A DNA stretch of 64,000 nt from an uncultured delta proteobacterium (GTDB lineage Bacteria > Desulfobacterota > Binatia > UBA9968). The DNA lies in the NCBI GenBank assembly GCA_963755715.1, contig CAVWLW010000074.1:108164-172163 (forward strand), given 5' to 3'. The translations under genes were made by a program, and so were the position numbers. Positions 18,934 through 53,079 of this stretch are shown here, in pieces (the first letter of the stretch is position 1; every line of letters begins with the position of its first letter). The notes below the pieces were generated by a model. That model was not told where the DNA came from and made no database searches. It worked only from the letters and a program-made list of their open reading frames with translations.

Positions 18934-19019
18934 GCCCGGATGGTGGAATAGGTAGACACAAGGGACTTAAAATCCCTCGGACCGAAAGGTCTGTGCCGGT
19001 TCGAGTCCGGCTCCGGGCA
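18934..19019 (+). tRNA. tRNA-Leu (anticodon TAA)
   Basis: GCCCGGA/TCCGGGC acceptor stem; AGGGA-CTTAAAA-TCCCT anticodon arm; long variable arm; GGTTCGAGTCC T-arm; CCA not encoded. Confidence 0.96.
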
Positions 19020-39990: not shown

Positions 39991-40473
39991 CTAGCCGCTC
40001 ATTGATTGGCCTGCCGCTCGATCTGCCGATTGGAAAATTTCTTCAAGCACGCGATGGCGGTACTGAAAAATCCGTTCGAGATCGGGCGCAACGAAAAATT
40101 TTTGCACGAGCCGGCCGCCGGGCACGGCATATTCGACTTTGTCGCCAACAAGGGTGCCATTGTCCTTCTCGGTAAAAGTGTGTTCGTGCACCCAGAGCGA
40201 GTAGGGACCTCGGGTCTGGCGATCGATGAAGCGATGGGGCGGCTGCCAGACTTGGATCTCGCTCTGCCAGCGCAGCGGTATGCCCCGCAGGCGCAGCCGA
40301 TAGTCGAGCAAAGTGCCTTCGCGGATTTCGATTGCCGGCGGCGTCAGGATTTCGAAACGGAGCCAATCCGGCGTCAGAGCGCTGGAGATTACGCGGGTCG
40401 GCAAAGAACTTGGAAAATTTGATCGCGCGCTTGGCGGAGCCAGAGTTGAGCTTTCAAATCGATATGTTTTCAT
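39991..40473 (-). CDS. SRPBCC family protein; N-terminal region probably frameshifted
   Basis: TPDWLRFEILTP, IPLRWQSEI, FIDRQTRGPYSLWVHEHTF, IFQYRH. Confidence 0.85.
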   Translation of the reverse strand: MKTYRFESSTLAPPSARSNFPSSLPTRVISSALTPDWLRFEILTPPAIEIREGTLLDYRLRLRGIPLRWQSEIQVWQPPHRFIDRQTRGPYSLWVHEHTFTEKDNGTLVGDKVEYAVPGGRLVQKFFVAPDLERIFQYRHRVLEEIFQSADRAAGQSMSG

Positions 40474-40504
40474 CACGGATTCATTCGAGCCCGCTTGCGC
40501 TGCT

Positions 40505-41468
40505 CTACACATGATTGCGCAGCATGAGTTCCTTAGGGCTCGGCGATAAATAAATCTGCTGGTTCAAATAAGGCGACGTCGTATTTCTTGACATAGTGTT
40601 GGATCAACGTGACCGGCACGATCAGCGGCACCAGTTGCTTGCGGTAATCGCGGATCAATTCCACCAGCTCGCTGCGCTCGGCGGCGGAGAGCCGCTCGGA
40701 GAAATATCCCATCATGTGGTCGAGGACATTGGCGTGTTTTTTGGCGCTGGCGTGAATCGCCAGCGCTTCCATGAAGCCCCGGCCGTATTCCTCGTAGGCT
40801 CCGCGCAAAGGAATTTTTTTTACGTCGGCGACCAGGCGACCGAGCCGGCGATAGTGGCGCTCGCTATGCGCCAGCAGCAAATATTTATGCCGGGTATGAA
40901 ATTCCACCAATGCGCCGGCGGACTTCGATCCCGCCAGGGCTTCCTGCCAACGATGATAGGCGAAAACCCGATCGATAAAATTCTCGCGCAGCGCGGGATC
41001 ATTCAAGCGGCCTTCTTCTTCCACGGGCATCAGCGGAAATCTGGCCATGACCGCGGCGGCGAATAAGCCGCGACCGCGGCGTACCGGCAGGTTCTTCGCG
41101 CCGTAGACGCGCACCCGTTCGACGCCGCAGCTCGGCGAGTTCTTTTTGAACACATAACCGGCGAGCTTTAATTCGACTAATTGCCGCATGCGCACAGCGG
41201 CAAAACGGTGCATCGCGTGCGTCCAATCCTTCCCCGAGCGCTCGGCGATCAGCTGGGGCTTGTCCGGCGGGCCAACCAACCGCAGTGTTTCGCGCGGCAC
41301 ACCCATGCCGACTTCGACTTCCGGACATACGGCAACCCACTCGACGAAACGGCCGAAAGTATCGCTTAGAAAATTATCCCGCTTGTGTGCGCCGTCGTAG
41401 CGAACATTTTGGCCGAGCAGGCAAGCGCTGATGCCGAGCTTCGGTTTGGGGCGATTGGATTCTGTCAT
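40505..41468 (-). CDS. ybgA: YbgA family (DUF523 + DUF1722) protein; frameshift near 40570
   Basis: ISACLLG...VRYDG, CPEVEVG, SPSCG, EEEGRL, RENF; shifted frame ends YLSPSPKELMLRNHV-stop. Confidence 0.88.
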
Positions 41469-41476
41469 GGCAATGT

Positions 41477-41545
41477 ATGATATTAATATCATTTTAATAA
41501 AAAAGTCAATTATACTTGACTAAAACGGCTAATTTGGTAAAAAGA
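41477..41545. promoter_or_regulatory. divergent promoter region with perfect palindrome (candidate operator)
   Basis: ATGATATTAATATCAT at 41477-41492; AGTCAA-TTATAC-TTGACT at 41504-41521 gives back-to-back TTGACT -35 boxes. Confidence 0.65.
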
Positions 41546-41563
41546 AGGTGATTAGGAGCTCAT

Positions 41564-42469
41564 ATGAAAGTGGTTATCACAGGAGCGACAGGGTTAATCG
41601 GCTCGATCTTGACCGATCGACTGTGGAATCAATTTCACTCTGTGGTGCTGCTGAGTCGGAAACCGCCCTCGGAAATCAACGTCACAAAAAAGGAATGGTT
41701 CGCATGGCAGCCGGGCGTTGGCGGCGAATGGGAGAAGGCCATCGACGGCGCCGACGGCATTATCAACTTGGCCGGCGAACCGATTGCCGCCAAACGCTGG
41801 AGCGTGGCGCAGAAAGCCAAGCTGCGCTCCAGTCGAATTGACGCAACCCGATCGTTGGTCGATGCAATTTCCAAGGCGAACGTAAAGCCAAAGTTTTTAA
41901 TCAACGCGTCAGCCGTAGGTTATTACGGGCCGCACGGGGATGAAACCGTGACGGAAAAGACCGGCTCCGGATCGGACTTTCTCTCGCGTCTCTGTGTCGA
42001 GTGGGAAGACGAGGCAAGAAAGGCCGAAGCGTTCGGCGTCAGAGTCGCGCTGGTGCGCACCGGCATCGTGCTCGCCAAAGGCAAGGGAGCGTTAGCCAAG
42101 ATGGTCGCGCCGTTCAAGATGTTCGTCGGCGGTCCCTTAGGCTCCGGCCGACAGTGGATGCCCTGGATTCATATCGAAGATGAGATCGAGCTGATTTCCT
42201 TTCTGATCGAAAACGATGCGGCGCGCGGTGCGTTCAACGCCACCGCACCGAATCCGGTGACTATGGAAGTATTCTCTAAAACGCTCGGCGACGCGCTCGA
42301 CCGGCCGTCGTGGGCGTCGGTGCCGCCGTCGGTGTTGGCGATCTTGGTGGGCGAGATGGCCGAGATGCTTTTAAATGGCCAGCGCGCCATGCCCGAGGCG
42401 GCGTCGAAGCTCGGCTACAATTTCAAATATCCGCATCTCGCCGGTGCACTGAAATCGCTGAAACTATAG
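41564..42469 (+). CDS. TIGR01777/YfcH family NAD-dependent epimerase-like protein
   Basis: ITGATGLIG, INLAGEPI, SAVGYYG, GSGRQWMPWIH. Confidence 0.92.
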   Translation: MKVVITGATGLIGSILTDRLWNQFHSVVLLSRKPPSEINVTKKEWFAWQPGVGGEWEKAIDGADGIINLAGEPIAAKRWSVAQKAKLRSSRIDATRSLVDAISKANVKPKFLINASAVGYYGPHGDETVTEKTGSGSDFLSRLCVEWEDEARKAEAFGVRVALVRTGIVLAKGKGALAKMVAPFKMFVGGPLGSGRQWMPWIHIEDEIELISFLIENDAARGAFNATAPNPVTMEVFSKTLGDALDRPSWASVPPSVLAILVGEMAEMLLNGQRAMPEAASKLGYNFKYPHLAGALKSLKL

Positions 42470-42529: not shown

Positions 42530-43472
42530 GTGAATATAGTCAAAAATCACTCAGATTATTTGGCGGAACATTTGGTGCCAATGCGGCAACGTTTCAGCAC
42601 CGCCCTCGGGCGCGGCGATGCCGAGGACGCGGCGCAAGTGATCGACGAGTTGCTGGCGGGCCAGAGATCGCTTTTGGAGATTTATCTGGAGGTCATTGCG
42701 CCGGCGTTGGTGGCCATCGGCGACTCGTGGTGCAGCGGCGAAATCGGCGTCGGAGACGAACACCTGGCGACACAAATCGTCATCGAGCAGATGGATCGGT
42801 TGCGCTCTTTGTTCGTGACGCCTGAAGCGCGCTCGCCCTATCGCGTACTGGTCGCTTGCATCGAAGGGGAGCAGCACTTCATCGGCGCTAGAATGGTCGC
42901 CGACCTCTGCTTGTTGAAAGGCTGGGCGGTCGATTTCCTCGGCGCGAACACGCCGACGACTGCCGTCGTCGAGATGGCCAAGCGACGCCATGCGCATTTG
43001 GTGGCGCTGTCCGTGACGATGGAACAAGGCATGACCCACGTGCAGCGCCTGCTCGATGAGTTGGCGGCGCTATCGCCCGCACCGAACGTCGTTCTCGGCG
43101 GCCAGCTTTTTGCCGCCAACGCCTTGCCGGTGAGTCTCCAGCGCGGTTGCGTCATCGCGCGCGACGCCACAGACGGCATCGAGCTGATCGGCAAGCTGCT
43201 GCGGGCGGATCGGCCGAAGGCTGTGCTGAAAGAATATTTGTTGGTTTTGGCCCGCCGGGTGCGCGAGCTGCGTACGAAGAAAGGTTGGACCCAGGAACAA
43301 TTGGCCGAAGCTACCCGGGTCACCCGTGTCTGCATCGTCGCCGTCGAAGGCGGCAAACAAAACGTTTCGATGGATATACTCGTCCGCCTCGGCCAATGCC
43401 CTGGCCGTAACGCCGGAGGCTCTGCTGGCGAGCGATAGCGATTTGCCCCCAGTCCCGAGGAGAGATGCATGA
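42530..43472 (+). CDS. cobalamin-binding (CarH-type) regulator with C-terminal XRE helix-turn-helix; frameshift near 43390
   Basis: W-x9-EH (WCSGEIGVGDEH), E-x-H-x-x-G (EQHFIG), LGANTP, ALSVT, LGG; then RVRELRTKKGWTQEQLAE...VEGGKQNVS; shifted frame ends with TGA overlapping the crtE ATG. Confidence 0.88.
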
Positions 43473-44581
43473 AGAATCCGATCTTCGAGAGCGCCAGCGC
43501 GGCGATTGCGCCGCGTAACAAACCGTTTAAAGAGCGCCACCAGAGCGGCGACGAGGATGGTCTTGCTTACGCCCTTCCCGATGACCATCGCTTGGGCAAG
43601 CTGCTTGGCTTTGACGCCGCTCCGGCGGTTGGAAATATTCTTATGGACGTGTTGCTCCGTCCCGTGGCCGATCTGACTGCAAACCCCGGTAAGCGCATCC
43701 GTGCGCAATTGGTTTCGTTCAGCTACCGGCTTCTCAATGGCGATCTGCCGTTGTCTCTGGCGGCAGCGACGCGTTGCCGGTCTTGCGCCGAAGCGATCGA
43801 ATTGATTCACGCCGGCTCGCTCATCGTCGACGATATCGAGGACGGCAGTCCGATGCGTCGGGGTTGTCCGGCGCTGCATACGCGCTACGGCATGCCGATC
43901 GCGCTCAACGCCGGCAACTGGTTATACTTCTGGCCTTTCCAGTTGTTCAAAGAAACCGGCCTCGGCGAAGACGATTTGCTGCTCGTGTATGAGCGTTATC
44001 ACCGCACGCTGCTGCGCGCCCATTTCGGTCAGGCCCTCGATTTAGGCGCGCGGGTCGACACGTTGACGCAAGATGCGGTGGCCGAAGTGTGCCTGGCTGC
44101 GATGCGGCTTAAAACCGGCGCGCTCATGGGCTTCGCCGCTCTCTTGGGCGCCACGCTTGCCGATGCTTCGGAAAGATTGCTGTCGACGCTCGACGAGTTC
44201 GGTCGGGACTTGGGCGTGGCGCTGCAAATGTTCGACGATTTGGGCAACGTTATCGGTAAATGCGAGCCATCAAAGCGCTACGAGGATTTGATTTTATCCC
44301 GGCCGTCGTGGGTGTGGGCCTGCGCCGCGCAGCGCAGCAGCCCGGCGGATTACCGGGACTTCGTCGCCGCGGCGCACAGGCTGCCCGAGGCGGCTGACTT
44401 GCAAGCGTGGATGGAACGGCATTGTTTGGTACAGGAGACGCGGCAAAGCGCCCGCGCGCATCTCGACCGGAGTTTCGACAATCTCAAAAATCGTTTGAGT
44501 GCCGAACACGTGCGCTGGTCGGCGCGCGCTTTTGACGAGCTGCGCGCTCTCGGCGAGGAGATCGCGGTGGCCTATGGCTAA
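43469..44581 (+). CDS. crtE: polyprenyl (GGPP) synthase
   Basis: GKRIR, HAGSLIVDDIED...RRG, GQALD, KTG; first gene of crtEIB run. Confidence 0.85.
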   Translation: MKNPIFESASAAIAPRNKPFKERHQSGDEDGLAYALPDDHRLGKLLGFDAAPAVGNILMDVLLRPVADLTANPGKRIRAQLVSFSYRLLNGDLPLSLAAATRCRSCAEAIELIHAGSLIVDDIEDGSPMRRGCPALHTRYGMPIALNAGNWLYFWPFQLFKETGLGEDDLLLVYERYHRTLLRAHFGQALDLGARVDTLTQDAVAEVCLAAMRLKTGALMGFAALLGATLADASERLLSTLDEFGRDLGVALQMFDDLGNVIGKCEPSKRYEDLILSRPSWVWACAAQRSSPADYRDFVAAAHRLPEAADLQAWMERHCLVQETRQSARAHLDRSFDNLKNRLSAEHVRWSARAFDELRALGEEIAVAYG

Positions 44582-46106
44582 GGTGCGCGCGGCGGTGATC
44601 GGCAGTGGATTCGGCGGCCTCGCCTTGGCGATCCGCTTACAGGCGGCCGGCTGCCGCACGATGCTATTTGAAAAACGCGATCAGGCGGGTGGGCGGGCGT
44701 ACGTTTACCGTGATCAAGGTTTTACCTTCGACGCCGGGCCGACGGTGATCACGGCGCCGGATTGTTTGCGCGAGCTTTTCACGCTCGCCGGCAGGTCGAT
44801 GGACGATTACGTTGAGCTGTTGCCGGTGAATCCCTTTTATCGCTTGTTCTGGGAAGACGGCTACCGGTTCGACTATTCCGCCGACCAGGCGCTGATCGAA
44901 CGGCAGATTGAAAAAAAATCGCCGGCCGACGTGGCCGGCTATAGGCAATTTTTAAAATATTCGGAAGAAGTGTTTCGCGAGGGTTACGAAAAACTCGCCC
45001 ACGTGCCGTTTCTCAACTGGTCGAGCATGGTTTCGGTCGCGCCGCAGTTAATTCGCCTGAAAGCCTATCGCTCGGTCTACAGCATGGTCGCCAAGCATGT
45101 GCGCGATCCGCATCTACGCCAGCTCTTCAGCTTTCATTCGCTCTTGGTCGGCGGCAATCCGTTTACGACGACTTCGATCTATACCTTGATTCATTGCCTG
45201 GAGCGCAAGTGGGGCGTTTTCTTTCCCAAGGGAGGCACCGGCGCGTTGGTGCGGGCGCTGGTCAAACTCTTCAACGAGCTTGGCGGTGAAATTCGCTTTA
45301 ATGCGGAAATCGCCGAGATTTCGACGAACGGCGATAAAGTTACCGGCGTGGTGGACGGGGAGGGGCACCAACAGGCTTTCGACTTGGTGGCGAGCAACGC
45401 CGATGTGGTTCATACTTATGGCAAACTGCTCGGGCACGAGCCGCGGGCTCAGCGCATGCGCAAATGCCTGGCGAAGATGAACTACAGCATGTCGCTGTTT
45501 CTAATCTATTTCGGCACGCGGCGAAAATATCCTAATCTCCTCCATCACAATATCATCTTCGGGCTGCGCTACCGCGAATTGTTACAAGACATTTTTAGTC
45601 GCGGCCGTTTGGCTGAAGATTTCTCGCTTTACCTGCACGCGCCGAGCCAATCCGATCCGGATCTGGCGCCGCCCGGCTGTGAAACTTTCTATGTGCTTTC
45701 CCCAGTGCCGCACCTGGGCAAGCTCAATCTCGACTGGAGCGTCGAAGGGCCGCGCTATGCTGAGCGCATACTCGCTTATCTCGAACAGCGCTACATGCCG
45801 GACTTGCGCCGCGAGATCGTTGCTCAAAGAATCTTTACGCCGAGGGATTTCCAGGTTGAGCTGAATTCTCATCTCGGCTCGGCATTTTCGCTCGAGCCGC
45901 GGTTGCTGCAGAGCGCCTATTTCCGAGTGCACAATCGCGACGAGAATATCAACGGCCTGTATTTCGTCGGCGCGGGGACCCATCCGGGCGCCGGTATTCC
46001 CGGCGTCGTCAACTCGGCGAAGGCGACCGCGGGCGTGATTTTGCAGGATTTCGCCGGTGTACTGGCAAGCGCACGGCTAAAGGCCGCGGAGTTTTGCTAT
46101 GCATGA
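44574..46106 (+). CDS. crtI: phytoene desaturase
   Basis: IGSGFGG, FDAGPTVIT, LVGGNPF, VGAGTHPGAGIPGV. Confidence 0.96.
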   Translation: MAKVRAAVIGSGFGGLALAIRLQAAGCRTMLFEKRDQAGGRAYVYRDQGFTFDAGPTVITAPDCLRELFTLAGRSMDDYVELLPVNPFYRLFWEDGYRFDYSADQALIERQIEKKSPADVAGYRQFLKYSEEVFREGYEKLAHVPFLNWSSMVSVAPQLIRLKAYRSVYSMVAKHVRDPHLRQLFSFHSLLVGGNPFTTTSIYTLIHCLERKWGVFFPKGGTGALVRALVKLFNELGGEIRFNAEIAEISTNGDKVTGVVDGEGHQQAFDLVASNADVVHTYGKLLGHEPRAQRMRKCLAKMNYSMSLFLIYFGTRRKYPNLLHHNIIFGLRYRELLQDIFSRGRLAEDFSLYLHAPSQSDPDLAPPGCETFYVLSPVPHLGKLNLDWSVEGPRYAERILAYLEQRYMPDLRREIVAQRIFTPRDFQVELNSHLGSAFSLEPRLLQSAYFRVHNRDENINGLYFVGAGTHPGAGIPGVVNSAKATAGVILQDFAGVLASARLKAAEFCYA

Positions 46107-47052
46107 GGCTATGACTCCGGAGGTAAAAACGGCCCTCGACGAGTGCCGTGAAATCATCCGCAAGGGATCGAAAAGTTTTTCCTTGGCCGCGCGGCTCTTC
46201 GATCCGGCGACGCGGGACGCGGCATTTTTTCTCTACGGCTGGTGTCGCTACTGCGACGATCAGGTCGATCAGGTGGGCCGGAGTGAAAGCGCGGCCGAGC
46301 TCGGGCAACGGCTGAAAGCGCTCAAGGAGCGCACGGCGGCCGCGTTTGGCTTCGCGCCGCAGCGCGAGCCGGTTTTTATCGCCCTGCAGTATATCGTGCA
46401 CCGCTACGGCATTCCGGCGCACTATGCGCTGGAATTGATCGAGGGCATGGCGATGGACGCGCGCGGCACGCGGTACACGACTTTAAAAGAGCTTTTGCTT
46501 TACTGCTACCGCGTCGCCGGTACCGTCGGTCTGATGATGACCCACGTGATGGGCCTGCGCGATGAGCGCGCGCTTAGACACGCGGCGGATCTAGGTATCG
46601 CCATGCAGCTCACTAATATCGCGCGCGACATTATCGAAGACGCCAGCATGGGCCGGATCTATCTGCCGGCGGGGTGGTTGCGCGAAGCCGAGATCGAGCC
46701 AGAAGAGCTCGCCGCGCCACACAACCGCGTGAAGTTGGCGATGTTGACGCTGCGCTTGCTGCACGAAGCCGAGCGCTACTACCGCTCCGGCGACGAAGGC
46801 TTGTGGCATCTTTCGCTTCGCTCCGCCTGCGCGGTCACGGCGGCGCGCCGCGTCTATTCCGAAATCGGCCGGCTGCTGATCGCCAAGGGCGCGCAGGCCT
46901 GGGACGAACGGACTTACGTCACCGGCGCGCGCAAGATATGGGTGGTGCTCCGCGCGGTTGCCGGTTTGATTCGCTCGGTGCCGGCGCGCTGGTTTCAACC
47001 CTGGTCGCCAGCGCCGCTGCGCGCGATTTGGAAAGCGTCCAATGTGCAATAG
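46099..47052 (+). CDS. crtB: phytoene synthase
   Basis: GSKSFSLA, CRYCDDQVD, YCYRVAGTVG, QLTNIARDIIED...GRIYLP. Confidence 0.96.
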   Translation: MHEAMTPEVKTALDECREIIRKGSKSFSLAARLFDPATRDAAFFLYGWCRYCDDQVDQVGRSESAAELGQRLKALKERTAAAFGFAPQREPVFIALQYIVHRYGIPAHYALELIEGMAMDARGTRYTTLKELLLYCYRVAGTVGLMMTHVMGLRDERALRHAADLGIAMQLTNIARDIIEDASMGRIYLPAGWLREAEIEPEELAAPHNRVKLAMLTLRLLHEAERYYRSGDEGLWHLSLRSACAVTAARRVYSEIGRLLIAKGAQAWDERTYVTGARKIWVVLRAVAGLIRSVPARWFQPWSPAPLRAIWKASNVQ

Positions 47053-47074
47053 GTCGAATTTCTCCGGAGGATCT

Positions 47075-47899
47075 ATGTCCATCGTGCCCTGGCTATTTTT
47101 AGCCGTTCAAGCCGCCATCGTCGTCGCCAGCCTTTTGGGCTACGGCATTTTTACCGCGCGTCCGGATCTGCTCCTACAGGTCGATCCGCAGGCGAAATTT
47201 TTTACCTGGGCGTTTCACGGCTTTGCCGTTGGCAACATGCTTTTCGGCGGGCTTGCCGTCGTCGCCGATGCGCTTTGGACGGATCGGCAAAAAGCTCTTT
47301 GGGCGTTCGTTGCCGTTTATGTCGTGAGTCTCACGAGCGAGCTCATGGGCACGACCTACGGCATGCCCTTCGGCGCCTATTCGTATACTTCGCTGCTCGG
47401 TGTCAAATGGTTCGAGCGCGTGCCGCTGTTGATTCCGCTGAGCTGGTTCACCATGAGTTGGGCCTGCTGGGTCATCGCACGGCTGCGTGCCCGCGGTGCC
47501 AGCGCCGTGTTGCTCGGCGCATCTTTGCTGGTGGCGTGGGATCTTTTGCTCGATCCGGCGATGAGCAAAGTGACGAGCTATTGGGTGTGGGGAGAAACCG
47601 GCAGTTACTATGACATGCCTTGGATGAATCTTGTCGGCTGGGGCGTCACCGGTCTAGTGCTGTTCATTATTCTCAACAAGATGGCGCCTGATCCGAAGAG
47701 TAGCCCGCGCTTCGCGTTTTGGGTGTACCTGGTTAATTTTGCCTTGCCGTTGGGCTTTTGCATCTTGAATCGTTACTGGCTAGCCGTGCTCGCCGGACCC
47801 TTGAGCATCACCTTGGCGTGTTTTGTTTTTACCCGCGTGTGGCGCGGCGGATTGAACCAGCAGGATTCTCCGGTAACTTTCGCCGCCGGCCGGGGCTAA
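47075..47899 (+). CDS. cruF: carotenoid biosynthesis membrane protein (CruF/DUF422, 1,2-hydratase-like)
   Basis: ELMGTTYGMPFGAYSY, VPLLIPLSW, WDLLLDPAM, PWMNLVGW. Confidence 0.8.
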   Translation: MSIVPWLFLAVQAAIVVASLLGYGIFTARPDLLLQVDPQAKFFTWAFHGFAVGNMLFGGLAVVADALWTDRQKALWAFVAVYVVSLTSELMGTTYGMPFGAYSYTSLLGVKWFERVPLLIPLSWFTMSWACWVIARLRARGASAVLLGASLLVAWDLLLDPAMSKVTSYWVWGETGSYYDMPWMNLVGWGVTGLVLFIILNKMAPDPKSSPRFAFWVYLVNFALPLGFCILNRYWLAVLAGPLSITLACFVFTRVWRGGLNQQDSPVTFAAGRG

Positions 47900-48522: not shown

Positions 48523-49346
48523 TCAGGGGTTTTGCGGGTTGAATGTGACTAAGCCGCAGCCGGTCGCCCACGGGACAATGGGCTCGTAGGCAAGCAATTC
48601 GGCTTTCCAGCTCTGCACCGCGCCCGCGAGAGCGATCCAAGTTCTGATTTCATGACCGCCGGACCCGGCGTCGGTATTGATTTCATCGTGGCTGTACGCA
48701 GTCAAACGCGCGCGATTGCCGCTGATTAGATTTGCCAAAAACATTTTGTCGAAGGGAACGTTGATTTTCCCGTGCTTCGCCTCGCCGGGCCAGTGCGACA
48801 GGCCTCCGGTCGCAATTAGGGCGATTCGCTTTGGATTTTTTTCCAACGCCCGGCCGAGAAACTCGCCGAGCGCGAAGCAGCGCTTCGCGCTCGGCATCGG
48901 CGGCGTGAGCGTATTGATGATCACCGGCACAATCGGGATGGCCATATTGGGATTTAAGAAATGCAGCGGCAAAAAGGTCGCGTGATCGAGCAGCAATTCG
49001 TCGGAGAAAGTCGGATCGAATCCGCCGTCAAAGCAGGCGTCGATCAATTGCGTTGCCAATTTTGCGTCGCCGGGCACTCGTGTTTTGGGGATCCGCAGCC
49101 ATTCTTCGACCGGGCCGTCGTAGTGCTCGGCGCGGCCGATGCAGAAGGCGGGCATGCGTTGAGAAAAAAATTCGCCCAGTGCTCGACGGTGAGGGCGACG
49201 ATGACATCGGGTTTAGCGCCCGCGAGCCGGGCGCCGAGCTTTCGATAGTTGCCAAGAAAATTGTCTGCTTGCGCTTTGGGTGCGGCTTCCGTCCAGGCGG
49301 TCATTCCGGGGGCATGGCTGGCGGCGCAGGCGAAAACGATCGGCAT
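48523..49346 (-). CDS. extradiol ring-cleavage dioxygenase LigB-type subunit; frameshift near 49160
   Basis: ASHAP, EHWANFF, LDHAT, TGGLSHWPG, HEIRTW. Confidence 0.88.
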
Positions 49347-49350
49347 GAAT

Positions 49351-49605
49351 TCACTCCAATCCTTTTAGTGCTTTGGCATAATCTTCGTTGGAAACTTTGT
49401 TGAGCAAGGTAAATGGCCTGAGCAGCAGGGAGTGAACGCCGATCGTATAAAGAGCGCGGACATCGACGTTGAGCACCGCCGCCGACTCTTGCTCGGACAA
49501 TTCATAGCTCTTGACGAATGCGGCGGGATTGCGGCGATAGCTCTCGCGCTGCGCCGCGTCGCGATTGACGTGATAAATCAGTTTTTGTAGTTGATAGAGG
49601 CTCAT
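49351..49605 (-). CDS. LigA-like small dioxygenase subunit
   Basis: MSLYQLQK...YELSEQE...LYTIGVH; directly upstream of the LigB-type gene. Confidence 0.8.
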   Translation of the reverse strand: MSLYQLQKLIYHVNRDAAQRESYRRNPAAFVKSYELSEQESAAVLNVDVRALYTIGVHSLLLRPFTLLNKVSNEDYAKALKGLE

Positions 49606-52391: not shown

Positions 52392-52800
52392 CTACCGGGT
52401 GCCGCCGGGCTTCCAGAGGATCTCGTCGCCACCCGCGGCCACCCGGCAGAGGATGAACATCAGGTCACTCAGCCGGTTGAGGTATTTCGCGGTCAGCGGG
52501 TTGACGTCGTCGTGCGCCTCCAGGGCGGCCCAGACGGTCCGCTCGGCCCTCCGGGTCACGGTCCTGGCCACGTGGAGCTGGGCGACGACCGGGGTGCCGC
52601 CCGGCAGGATGAAGCTGCGCAGCGGCTTGAGCCGCTCGTTGAACTCATCGCACCGCTCCTCCAGCCATTCGACGTAGGAGGGCTCGACCCGCAGCGGCGG
52701 GAACTCGGGGCTCTCCACGACCGGGGTGCACAGGTCGGCGCCGACGTCGAACAGCTCGTTCTGGATCCGGACGAGGACCCGGGTGATGTCCTCGTCGTCG
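52392..52800 (-). CDS. PduO-type cob(I)alamin adenosyltransferase, 3' fragment
   Basis: IQNELFDVGADL, FILPGG, RTVTRRAER, YLNRLSD; N-terminal TRTGD motif missing. Confidence 0.9.
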
Positions 52801-53079
52801 TACCTCGAGGGCTTCGGGCTGGTCGCGCTCGAGGCCGCCGCCCACGGCACGCCGGCCGTGGTCTCAGACCTCCCGTGCTTCGCCGAGACGCTGGGCGACG
52901 CCGCGCTGCGGGTGGCGGTCGGCGACGCCGGCGCGCTCGCCGACGCGCTGCTGCGCATCGGCGGCGACGACGCGCTGCGCGCCCGCCTGGGCGCCGCCGC
53001 GCGCGAGCGCGCCGCCCTCTACACCTGGAAGCGGGCGGCGGCCGCGCTGCATCCGCTGCTGGCGCAGGCGGCGGCGTGA
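52800..53079 (+). CDS. GT4 glycosyltransferase, 3' fragment
   Basis: EGFGLVALEA...GTPAVVSD (E-x7-E motif), YTW. Confidence 0.85.

Follow-up and report, generated by a model that had tools for sequence, protein, structure and literature searches.

CarH is the model for photoreception by vitamin B12 and a widely used green-light part in optogenetics, and the members of the CarH/LitR family (among them TtCarH and the CarH proteins of Myxococcus xanthus and Bacillus megaterium) join a two-part B12 module, consisting of a four-helix cap and a Rossmann domain, to a MerR winged helix that precedes the cap. The operator of CarH is made of 11-bp direct repeats. A module of the same B12-binding_2 and B12-binding domains serves light-dependent gene control in AerR/PpaA, which have no DNA-binding domain and act through CrtJ/PpsR. 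Besides the photocobilins, the proven B12 photoreceptors found in our literature search use a MerR DNA-binding domain. Here we analyze a regulator gene in a 64,000-nt stretch (hereafter the window) of contig CAVWLW010000074.1, from assembly GCA_963755715.1 of an uncultured delta proteobacterium, in which a B12 module of the CarH type is followed by a C-terminal helix-turn-helix (HTH) domain of the XRE (Cro/C1) type and which adjoins a set of carotenoid genes. We propose, with a probability of roughly 0.6, that its product is an adenosylcobalamin (AdoCbl)-dependent repressor released by light. We favor this reading because of the domains in the translation, the photoreceptor signature, kinship in fold, the union of sensor and HTH in a single polypeptide, conserved synteny, and two conserved boxes in the neighboring promoter region.

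An excerpt of Yu et al. (2024; PMC11796333) describes, in generic terms, light-responsive cobalamin-binding domains (CBDs) fused to HTH domains on both the N- and C-terminal sides, and a passage in PMC10979010 states that more complex putative B12 photoreceptors “lack functional characterisation”. Our literature search, whose coverage did not extend to figures and subscription journals, returned no description of a CBD-XRE protein and no characterized member of the family. In a term search of the text of the Binatota genome paper (PMC8262859), “CarH”, “cobalamin” and “regulator” were all absent. The architecture is uncharacterized rather than unseen. The original prediction, made from the sequence of the window, had described a differently built B12 light switch, with the domain order reversed and another DNA-binding fold; the family with this architecture proves to be large and already annotated.

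Domain architecture and kinship of the regulator

The open reading frame (ORF) of the regulator, as assembled, encodes in order a four-helix B12-binding_2 domain (PF02607, residues 19–91, E 2.7e-16), a Rossmann B12-binding domain (PF02310, residues 105–198, E 1.7e-18), a linker helix, and an XRE HTH shortened by a frameshift (HTH_31, PF13560, residues 240–287, E 5.9e-9; HTH_3, PF01381, residues 244–287, E 2.2e-7, 31.2 bits against a cut-off of 23). This frameshift cuts the HTH_3 match off at profile position 44 of 55, and relatives have the complete domain, with matches that span positions 1–54 of 55 (P0121) and 1–53 of 55 (L035). In the translation, W-x9-EH reads WCSGEIGVGDEH and E-x-H-x-x-G reads EQHFIG. 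The Pfam scan gave no MerR-type domain in the ORF, and the CarH equivalog model NF052513 (TransRegCarH) matched at profile positions 83–250 of 274, a match limited to the B12 part of the protein, with 76.1 bits against a cut-off of 400. These results agree with the original prediction of a CarH-like B12 module, no N-terminal MerR domain and a C-terminal XRE HTH in one polypeptide, the last of which is also seen in the single-frame proteins of relatives. A scan of the genome found no second CarH-like module, the other B12-binding_2 match lying in a 1236-aa frame of the size of MetH.

Lacking the MerR domain and falling far short of the cut-off of the family model, the regulator is not placed in the CarH/LitR family, and its own HTH also sets it apart from the AerR/PpaA type. 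A stand-alone B12 antirepressor like AerR/PpaA was rejected for the family as a whole, as the HTH is fused to the module in 141 of 150 representatives and, judged by length, in 114 of 120 close homologues.

By sequence, the nearest solved chains to the B12 module are the photocobilins 8j2x and 8j2w (E 2.7e-17), followed by CtMerR (8jbs), the GGDEF photocobilin 8j2y and TtCarH (about 1e-13), and the corrinoid proteins of methyltransferases are far weaker (1y80, E 7e-6; 7xcn, E 3e-5). The fold was compared through an AlphaFold2 model of an intact orthologue that is 86% identical to the regulator (P0001), made with a 29-row alignment. The mean predicted local distance difference test score (pLDDT) of the model is 79.4, with block means mostly from 85 to 97 in the B12 module. 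In a Foldseek search of the PDB the same photoreceptors rank first, with target-normalized template modeling (TM) scores of 0.77–0.84 to the CBDs of CtMerR and TtCarH (~0.8 for the TtCarH structures), and MetH appears at rank 40 at best. In the comparison with CarH/LitR, sequence identity over the CBD is only 25–28%. Although the annotation pipeline of the Joint Genome Institute (JGI) gives some members of the family an MtbC/MtaC/MtgC-type name, a methyltransferase corrinoid protein was rejected on the scores for TIGR02370 (42.8 bits vs. 215.3), MtbC (28.1 vs. 350) and MtaC (27.6 vs. 450), and on the carotenoid genes that are its neighbors.

The signature of light-responsive CBDs is given in an excerpt of Yu et al. 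(2024; PMC11796333) as GxxW, EH, GxxH and GxxxP. All four motifs are present in the regulator, as GDSW, (D)EH, GEQH and GANTP, and it shares with CarH/LitR the lower-axial His that lies within E-x-H-x-x-G. The residue that follows the motif Trp is Cys. In TtCarH this position is presumably His132, which forms the His adduct of the light state (the H132A entries 8c35 and 8c36 and our alignment agree with this assignment). The photocobilins (8j2w, 8j2x, 8j2y) and CtMerR of Chloracidobacterium thermophilum (8jbs/8jbt), which are the best matches in sequence and fold and share the signature, likewise lack a His after the Trp in the alignment. They differ from the regulator in their other domains, in that CtMerR has an N-terminal MerR domain, whereas the photocobilins have a biliverdin-binding globin-like domain, in some cases GGDEF, and no DNA-binding domain.

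For the C-terminal 60 residues, taken from an intact orthologue, the nearest solved chains are the XRE controllers C.AhdI (1y7y), C.BclI (2b5a) and ClgR (3f51), with E 6.8e-8. Such controllers are small, single-domain proteins with no sensor, in contrast to the regulator; they are dimeric and bind palindromes. The candidate operator described below is palindromic too, unlike the direct repeats of CarH. A homodimer prediction with two copies of the intact orthologue scored 0.13 (mark 0.42), which weighs neither way.

The carotenoid locus and its divergent promoter region

The features of the locus are collected in Table 1. The gene order, with a ybgA-like gene pointing away from yfcH/ThyD-like, B12-XRE, crtE, crtI and crtB genes (and cruF), recurs in 20 of the 22 related loci (L013–L034). 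In 20 of these 22 loci a crtE-like gene lies directly 3' of the regulator, followed by crtI, crtB and usually a cruF-like gene as far as the flank reaches; the exceptions are L034, which has a crtB-like gene, and L025, which ends within the regulator gene. The divergent ybgA-like gene is found upstream wherever there is a flank, together with the SRPBCC gene. The yfcH/ThyD-like gene is missing in L024, L028 and L032, where the regulator gene comes directly after the boxes. A further locus, L011 (G008), has the same order, and several of L002–L012 were not counted twice because their tblastn values are identical and they are apparently the same contigs as the named loci. The regulator gene is probably co-transcribed with the carotenoid genes, and the regulated unit likely also takes in the yfcH/ThyD-like gene and the divergent ybgA-like and SRPBCC genes.

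Table 1. Coordinates of the regulator gene, its neighbors and the conserved boxes (positions in the window).
Feature	Position	Strand	Basis
SRPBCC-like gene, last of the divergent arm	39991..40512	-	Weak Polyketide_cyc match, E 0.0046; kept 3' of the ybgA-like gene in relatives
YbgA-like gene (2-thiouracil desulfurase domain and DUF1722), divergent	40533..41492	-	PF04463 E 6.2e-40; PF08349 E 1.4e-36
Box 1, 16-nt perfect palindrome ATGATATTAATATCAT	41477..41492	.	Read from sequence; 20 intergenic regions compared; holds the -10 of the predicted minus-strand promoter
Box 2, AGTCAA-N6-TTGACT palindrome, best operator candidate	41504..41521	.	Read from sequence; 20 regions compared; holds the -35 of the predicted minus-strand promoter
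YfcH/ThyD-like gene (NAD-dependent epimerase family, DUF1731), first in the plus-strand operon	41564..42469	+	TIGR01777 354 bits vs. cut-off 207; Pfam Epimerase and DUF1731
B12-XRE regulator ORF as assembled, 302 aa	42530..43438	+	GTG start; ORF list, Pfam, NCBIfam
Extra-base site (GGCC run), shifts the frame	43391..43394	+	Shorter contigs; homologues read through
Regulator remainder in the +1 frame (HTH end and tail ...PRRDA)	43392..43472	+	TGA overlaps ATG of the next gene
CrtE-like polyprenyl (geranylgeranyl diphosphate-type) synthase	43469..44581	+	polyprenyl_synt E 7.3e-44; all NCBIfam matches below cut-off
CrtI-family phytoene desaturase	44574..46106	+	TIGR02734 693 bits vs. cut-off 238
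CrtB phytoene synthase	46099..47052	+	SQS_PSY E 8.4e-71; NF042419 313 bits, below cut-off 480
CruF-like carotenoid hydratase/hydroxylase, membrane protein	47042..47899	+	Caroten_synth E 3.7e-44; CruF models below cut-offs

Between the yfcH/ThyD-like gene and the start of the ybgA-like gene as called from the ORF lie 71 nt with two conserved boxes, which appear in the same order and at the same spacing in 20 intergenic regions of relatives. Box 1 takes the form (A/G)TGTT(G/T)AcT-N7-AACATT in the relatives, and Box 2 lies 11–12 nt beyond it. In 19 of the 20 related regions Box 2 contains GTCAAnTATA (GTCTAnTATA in L034), 19 of 20 have GTCAAnTATAnnT.AC, and a perfect palindrome of the AGTCAA/TTGAC type is seen in the window and in L013, L019, L024, L028 and L032. 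The comparison was anchored on Box 2 itself, so what it shows is that every region has Box 2, and that its distances to Box 1 and to the genes are constant. A repeat search of 41400–41620 gave no inverted repeats of a minimum length of 10; the arms of the boxes are only 6–8 nt long, and the palindromes were read by eye.

A sigma-70-like promoter is predicted on the minus strand, with TTGACT at 41509 separated by 18 nt from a TAATAT that ends at 41480, and on the plus strand a −35 element can be read by eye in Box 1 of most relatives. The arrangement resembles a pair of back-to-back promoters whose core elements are covered by conserved palindromes, a position suited to a repressor, and Box 2 is the best candidate for the operator. 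The recognition-helix region of the regulator (..TRV.R.CIVAVEGGKQN) is nearly invariant within the carotenoid-linked clade, in step with the conserved boxes. In the genome of 7.4 Mb the Box 2 pattern GTCAANTATANNTNAC has this single occurrence (a control gave 0 matches), and no further targets were found with it. The start of the ybgA-like ORF as called (41492) falls inside Box 1. Alignments of its homologues begin at residues 1–9, there is a Met codon at 41468, and the real start may be this one. With the predicted −10 at 41480–41485, the ybgA-like transcript would be nearly leaderless.

In the mechanism that we propose, the AdoCbl-loaded protein would oligomerize in the dark via its B12 module, and the oligomer would bind the boxes of the 71-nt region and block both back-to-back promoters. 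Light would break the Co–C bond, upon which the oligomer or its grip on DNA would be lost, and both the ybgA-SRPBCC unit and the thyD-regulator-crtE-crtI-crtB-cruF unit would then be transcribed, such that carotenoids would be made when light is present. The binding of B12, the response to light, the oligomer, the operator and the sign of regulation are inferred; the predicted logic, with dark repression and release by light next to carotenoid genes, is that of CarH/LitR. The regulator would also be autoregulated, as carH is in the carB cluster of M. xanthus, inside which carH lies according to a passage of PMC8156234.

A supply of AdoCbl seems plausible from the gene content of the genome. 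A PduO-type ATP:cob(I)alamin adenosyltransferase (PF01923, E 6.7e-42) is encoded at 52392–52958 on the minus strand, ~9 kb from the regulator, and a second PduO-type copy lies on contig C9; an enzyme of the CobA/BtuR type was not found in the genome. Neither a cobalamin riboswitch nor any other known RNA was found at the locus, the sole Rfam match in the window being a tRNA at 18934–19019.

Reading frame of the regulator gene

Frame 0 of the regulator ends in ILVRLGQCPGRNAGGSAGER and a stop, and the +1 frame (ORF 43326..43472) reads ANALAVTPEALLASDSDLPPVPRRDA up to its own stop, a TGA (43470–43472) that overlaps the ATG (43469–43471) of the polyprenyl synthase gene in the sequence ATGA (43469–43472). 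Homologues of 305–320 aa end in “...ILVRL(A/G)NAL.V.PE.LL...PRR..” in a single frame. We aligned Logan contigs from four soil and rhizosphere runs of four studies to positions 43200–43560. One letter is omitted at 43391 in X1 (1 contig), X8 (1 contig, with all of the depth) and X14 (2 contigs, with all of the depth), and the contigs of X1 and X2 that begin at 43392 have an 11-letter loose end that is likewise one base shorter. None of the contigs listed from the four runs bridges this interval with the longer form of the window. The contigs and the homologues thus uphold the earlier proposal that dropping one base near 43390 completes the HTH and makes its stop overlap the crtE start.

The extra base is very likely an assembly error, and therefore the organism probably has an intact regulator of 313 aa. 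The alternative is a pseudogene in the source genome, with a genuine extra base, a truncated HTH and a constitutive carotenoid operon. We regard this as unlikely. The assembled sequence does have the extra base, and the Logan contigs are 90–99% alike, so they come from related strains and not necessarily from the source sample. In addition, a protein that is 92% identical and comes from another public assembly (P0067) likewise loses its frame within the HTH region and continues, with more shifts, into the frame of crtE. On the other hand, all of the listed bridging contigs of the four runs lack the extra base, and a partial protein 99% identical to the regulator (P0054) reads through in one frame. 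In the downstream frame, moreover, the end of the HTH is perfect and the ATGA overlap is intact, which argues that there has been no decay.

The further shifts of P0067 suggest a low-quality assembly rather than shared biology, and together with a second out-of-frame gene 6 kb away in the window they fit indel-prone assemblies. This second gene encodes a LigB-family extradiol dioxygenase (48523–49364, minus strand), with the shift near 49170–49210. Its pieces lie in different frames here, whereas two relatives, L126 and L127, have them next to each other in one frame (tblastn), and the LigB-family open frames are 272–324 aa long in relatives vs. 229 here; Pfam gave no match for the 106-aa N-terminal piece. 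Split genes are common in the long-read metagenome-assembled genome records of the regulator's clade.

Two other explanations of the split frame were rejected. Programmed +1/−1 frameshifting does not agree with relatives that use one frame and with contigs that lack the extra base. An HTH encoded as a separate gene does not agree with relatives that encode one polypeptide: among 14 strong matches of the same genus only G014 (split) and G020 (two stops) deviate, and of the 120 best close homologues 114 are 290–340 aa long.

Distribution of the family and alternative explanations

The regulator is a well-supported, ordinary-looking gene of a large uncharacterized family. A word-index search gave 506 proteins at E ≤ 1e-3, the best 120 of which (P0001–P0120) were analyzed as close homologues; nearly all of them carry all three domains, under pipeline names such as “cobalamin-dependent protein”, “MtbC1/DNA-binding XRE family transcriptional regulator” and “MerR family ... 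light-induced transcriptional regulator”. When a profile was run against 1.84 billion representatives, 39,133 matched at E ≤ 1e-3 and 8,455 at E ≤ 1e-10, and at E ≤ 1e-30 there were 678, the last being clusters at 50% identity. The best 150 matches are mostly 280–320 aa long and align end to end, and Pfam finds B12-binding in 147 of them, HTH_3 in 141 and B12-binding_2 in 140, with the AppA_SCHIC model, which is related to AerR/PpaA, matching only 2.

In a scan with one genome per species, for which the query was an alignment of 25 closer rows, there were at least 601 pattern matches, of which at least 429 species genomes encode a relative; the record titles of the best 80 of these name Dehalococcoidia, Bdellovibrionota, Rokubacteria/Methylomirabilota, Fimbriimonadales, Fraserbacteria, Thermoleophilaceae, Latescibacterota and Bipolaricaulia. 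The B12-XRE architecture is widespread across many phyla and is not rare. Closer to the window, a strong orthologue (E ≤ 1e-60, 51–59% identity) is encoded in 14 of 24 genomes from the same genus, and one has fragments (the unpublished G005 is included in the 24 and counted as having no strong match). None of 16 genomes from other families of the order has a strong orthologue, and none of 300 genomes sampled across the phylum has one at E ≤ 1e-40. The record labels of the regulator's clade conflict, with Candidatus Binatia, uncultured delta proteobacterium, Syntrophobacter sp., Thermodesulfobacteriota and Chloroflexota all in use. Among the matches listed, a near-identical sequence occurs in 20 runs of 10 named studies.

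The signature is largely kept across this range. In 134 full-length representatives of the wider family we find the Gly of the first motif in 128, its Trp in 125, EH in 122, the lower-axial His in 132 and GxxxP in 129–130, and the residue after the Trp is His in 51. The 114 close homologues have GxxW in 113, GxxHxxG in 109 and GxxxP in 113, and the residue after the Trp is Cys in 107, with EH in only 64.

The neighbors in the wider family are another matter. The link to carotenoid genes that the original prediction had made is confirmed for crtE-crtI-crtB-cruF in the genus-level clade and does not extend to the wider family, where other neighbors are found. We clustered the neighbors of 79 loci with four genes per side. 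Mostly in Bdellovibrionota, 21 loci have a gene for a DnaJ-domain protein, 19 one for Methyltransf_9 and 14 one for ApaG; in Dehalococcoidia, 17 loci have a gene for an AcrB-type pump. A ThyD-like epimerase occurs in 10 loci and an amine oxidase in 5, and YbgA, photolyase, pyrimidine-dimer glycosylase, cyclopropane-fatty-acid (CFA) synthase and ERG4/DUF1295 genes in 4 each. At least one photolyase, pyrimidine-dimer glycosylase, YbgA, ThyD-like epimerase, CFA-synthase, amine-oxidase or DUF1295 gene lies within four genes in 27 of the 79 loci. The label of light- or ultraviolet (UV)-type neighbor that we use for this set is post hoc, drawn from the literature on the LitR and singlet-oxygen regulons and on ybgA-phr in Escherichia coli, where ybgA adjoins phr, and is to be taken as a hint. 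In the 93.6%-complete genome the photolyase FAD-binding domain (PF03441, FAD_binding_7) was not found, and a broader light regulon is therefore not evident.

In the loci themselves, the neighbors in freshwater Bdellovibrionota (L078–L120) are DnaJ-domain, Methyltransf_9/DUF1698 and ApaG genes, and in Dehalococcoidia (L055–L112) an AcrB-type resistance-nodulation-division (RND) pump gene lies directly 3'. A 34%-identical member at L035:4905-5801 (plus strand) is divergent from amine oxidase and DUF1365 genes and has a DUF3833 gene after it; in proteobacteria the amine oxidase/DUF1365/DUF3833 set belongs to light and singlet-oxygen regulons.

Several of these observations weigh against a light-released repressor. 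The His of EH is replaced by Lys in 49 of the 114 close homologues (EK in 27, QK in 22) and in 12 of the 20 carotenoid-linked loci (EK in 8, QK in 4), so this residue of the signature is not conserved exactly where the carotenoid link is strongest, though the protein of the window keeps EH. The Cys of the regulator stands where TtCarH has His132. No light-type neighbor is seen in 52 of the 79 wider-family loci. The HTH part of the orthologue model is of low confidence (pLDDT 55–72), and if the frameshift is real in the strain the regulator lacks the last part of its HTH. Finally, the conserved boxes coincide with core promoter hexamers, so that their conservation could reflect the promoters rather than an operator.

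Two of these points would also suit a regulator that binds cobalamin and senses its availability or redox state with no photochemistry. The Lys in place of the EH His could mean a different upper ligand, and the many loci with no obvious light-related neighbor fit such a role, as does the fact that many modules of B12-binding_2 and B12-binding are not photoreceptors (MetH and the corrinoid proteins). We nevertheless think that sensing of this kind has a small chance of being correct, given that the unit holds carotenoid genes and a ybgA-like gene and no gene of B12 metabolism or transport, that the module is nearest in both sequence and fold to proven photoreceptors and not to corrinoid proteins, and that the wider family keeps the photoreceptor signature in about 91–99% of its members.

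It is improbable that the B12 module is a ligand-independent oligomerization domain in an XRE repressor that is constitutive or otherwise controlled. There is precedent, as the module of M. xanthus CarA reportedly acts in this way, and a passage of PMC9304148 describes a B12-independent paralogue in the CarH family; the signature also varies in part in the carotenoid-linked clade. However, few proteins lack the lower-axial His, the Trp or GxxxP, which are kept in 109–113 of 114 close homologues and in 125–132 of 134 members of the wider family, a constancy that is hard to explain without a corrinoid ligand. We give as little credence to an activator that responds to light or B12. Activation as well as repression is known from certain members of the XRE family, the C.AhdI-type controllers among them, and C.AhdI is the nearest solved HTH, a likeness that does not directly support activation, but the boxes overlap the −35 and −10 elements of the promoter predicted on the minus strand and surround the probable start on the plus strand, the usual position for a repressor, and to our knowledge all characterized CarH/LitR proteins of this module type are repressors.

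If the regulator is indeed a repressor released by light, the B12 light module can be combined with DNA-binding folds other than MerR, and a second, orthogonal light-controlled repressor–operator pair would be available, with a compact XRE HTH and a probably palindromic operator. For an abundant soil lineage that has not been cultured, it would further provide a simple explanation of light-regulated pigmentation that can be put to the test. A wider and more tentative idea is that CBD-XRE proteins might be a second, independently assembled class of B12-photoreceptor transcription factors, found by record label in Dehalococcoidia, Bdellovibrionota, Methylomirabilota/Rokubacteria, Armatimonadota, Planctomycetota and a soil clade labeled deltaproteobacterial or Binatia. 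Because the HTH follows the Rossmann domain, dark assembly and the release of DNA in the light would have to differ geometrically from those of the CarH tetramer, and in the carotenoid-linked clade the Cys after the motif Trp may take the place of TtCarH His132 as the ligand of cobalt in the light state, and Lys that of the His of EH. With these H-to-C and H-to-K exchanges, at positions that face the cofactor, nature has itself probed what the photoreceptor signature requires. One member of the wider family, 43% identical to the query alignment, is encoded on the complete chromosome of Candidatus Uabimicrobium amorphum SRT547 (L047, NZ_AP019860.1).

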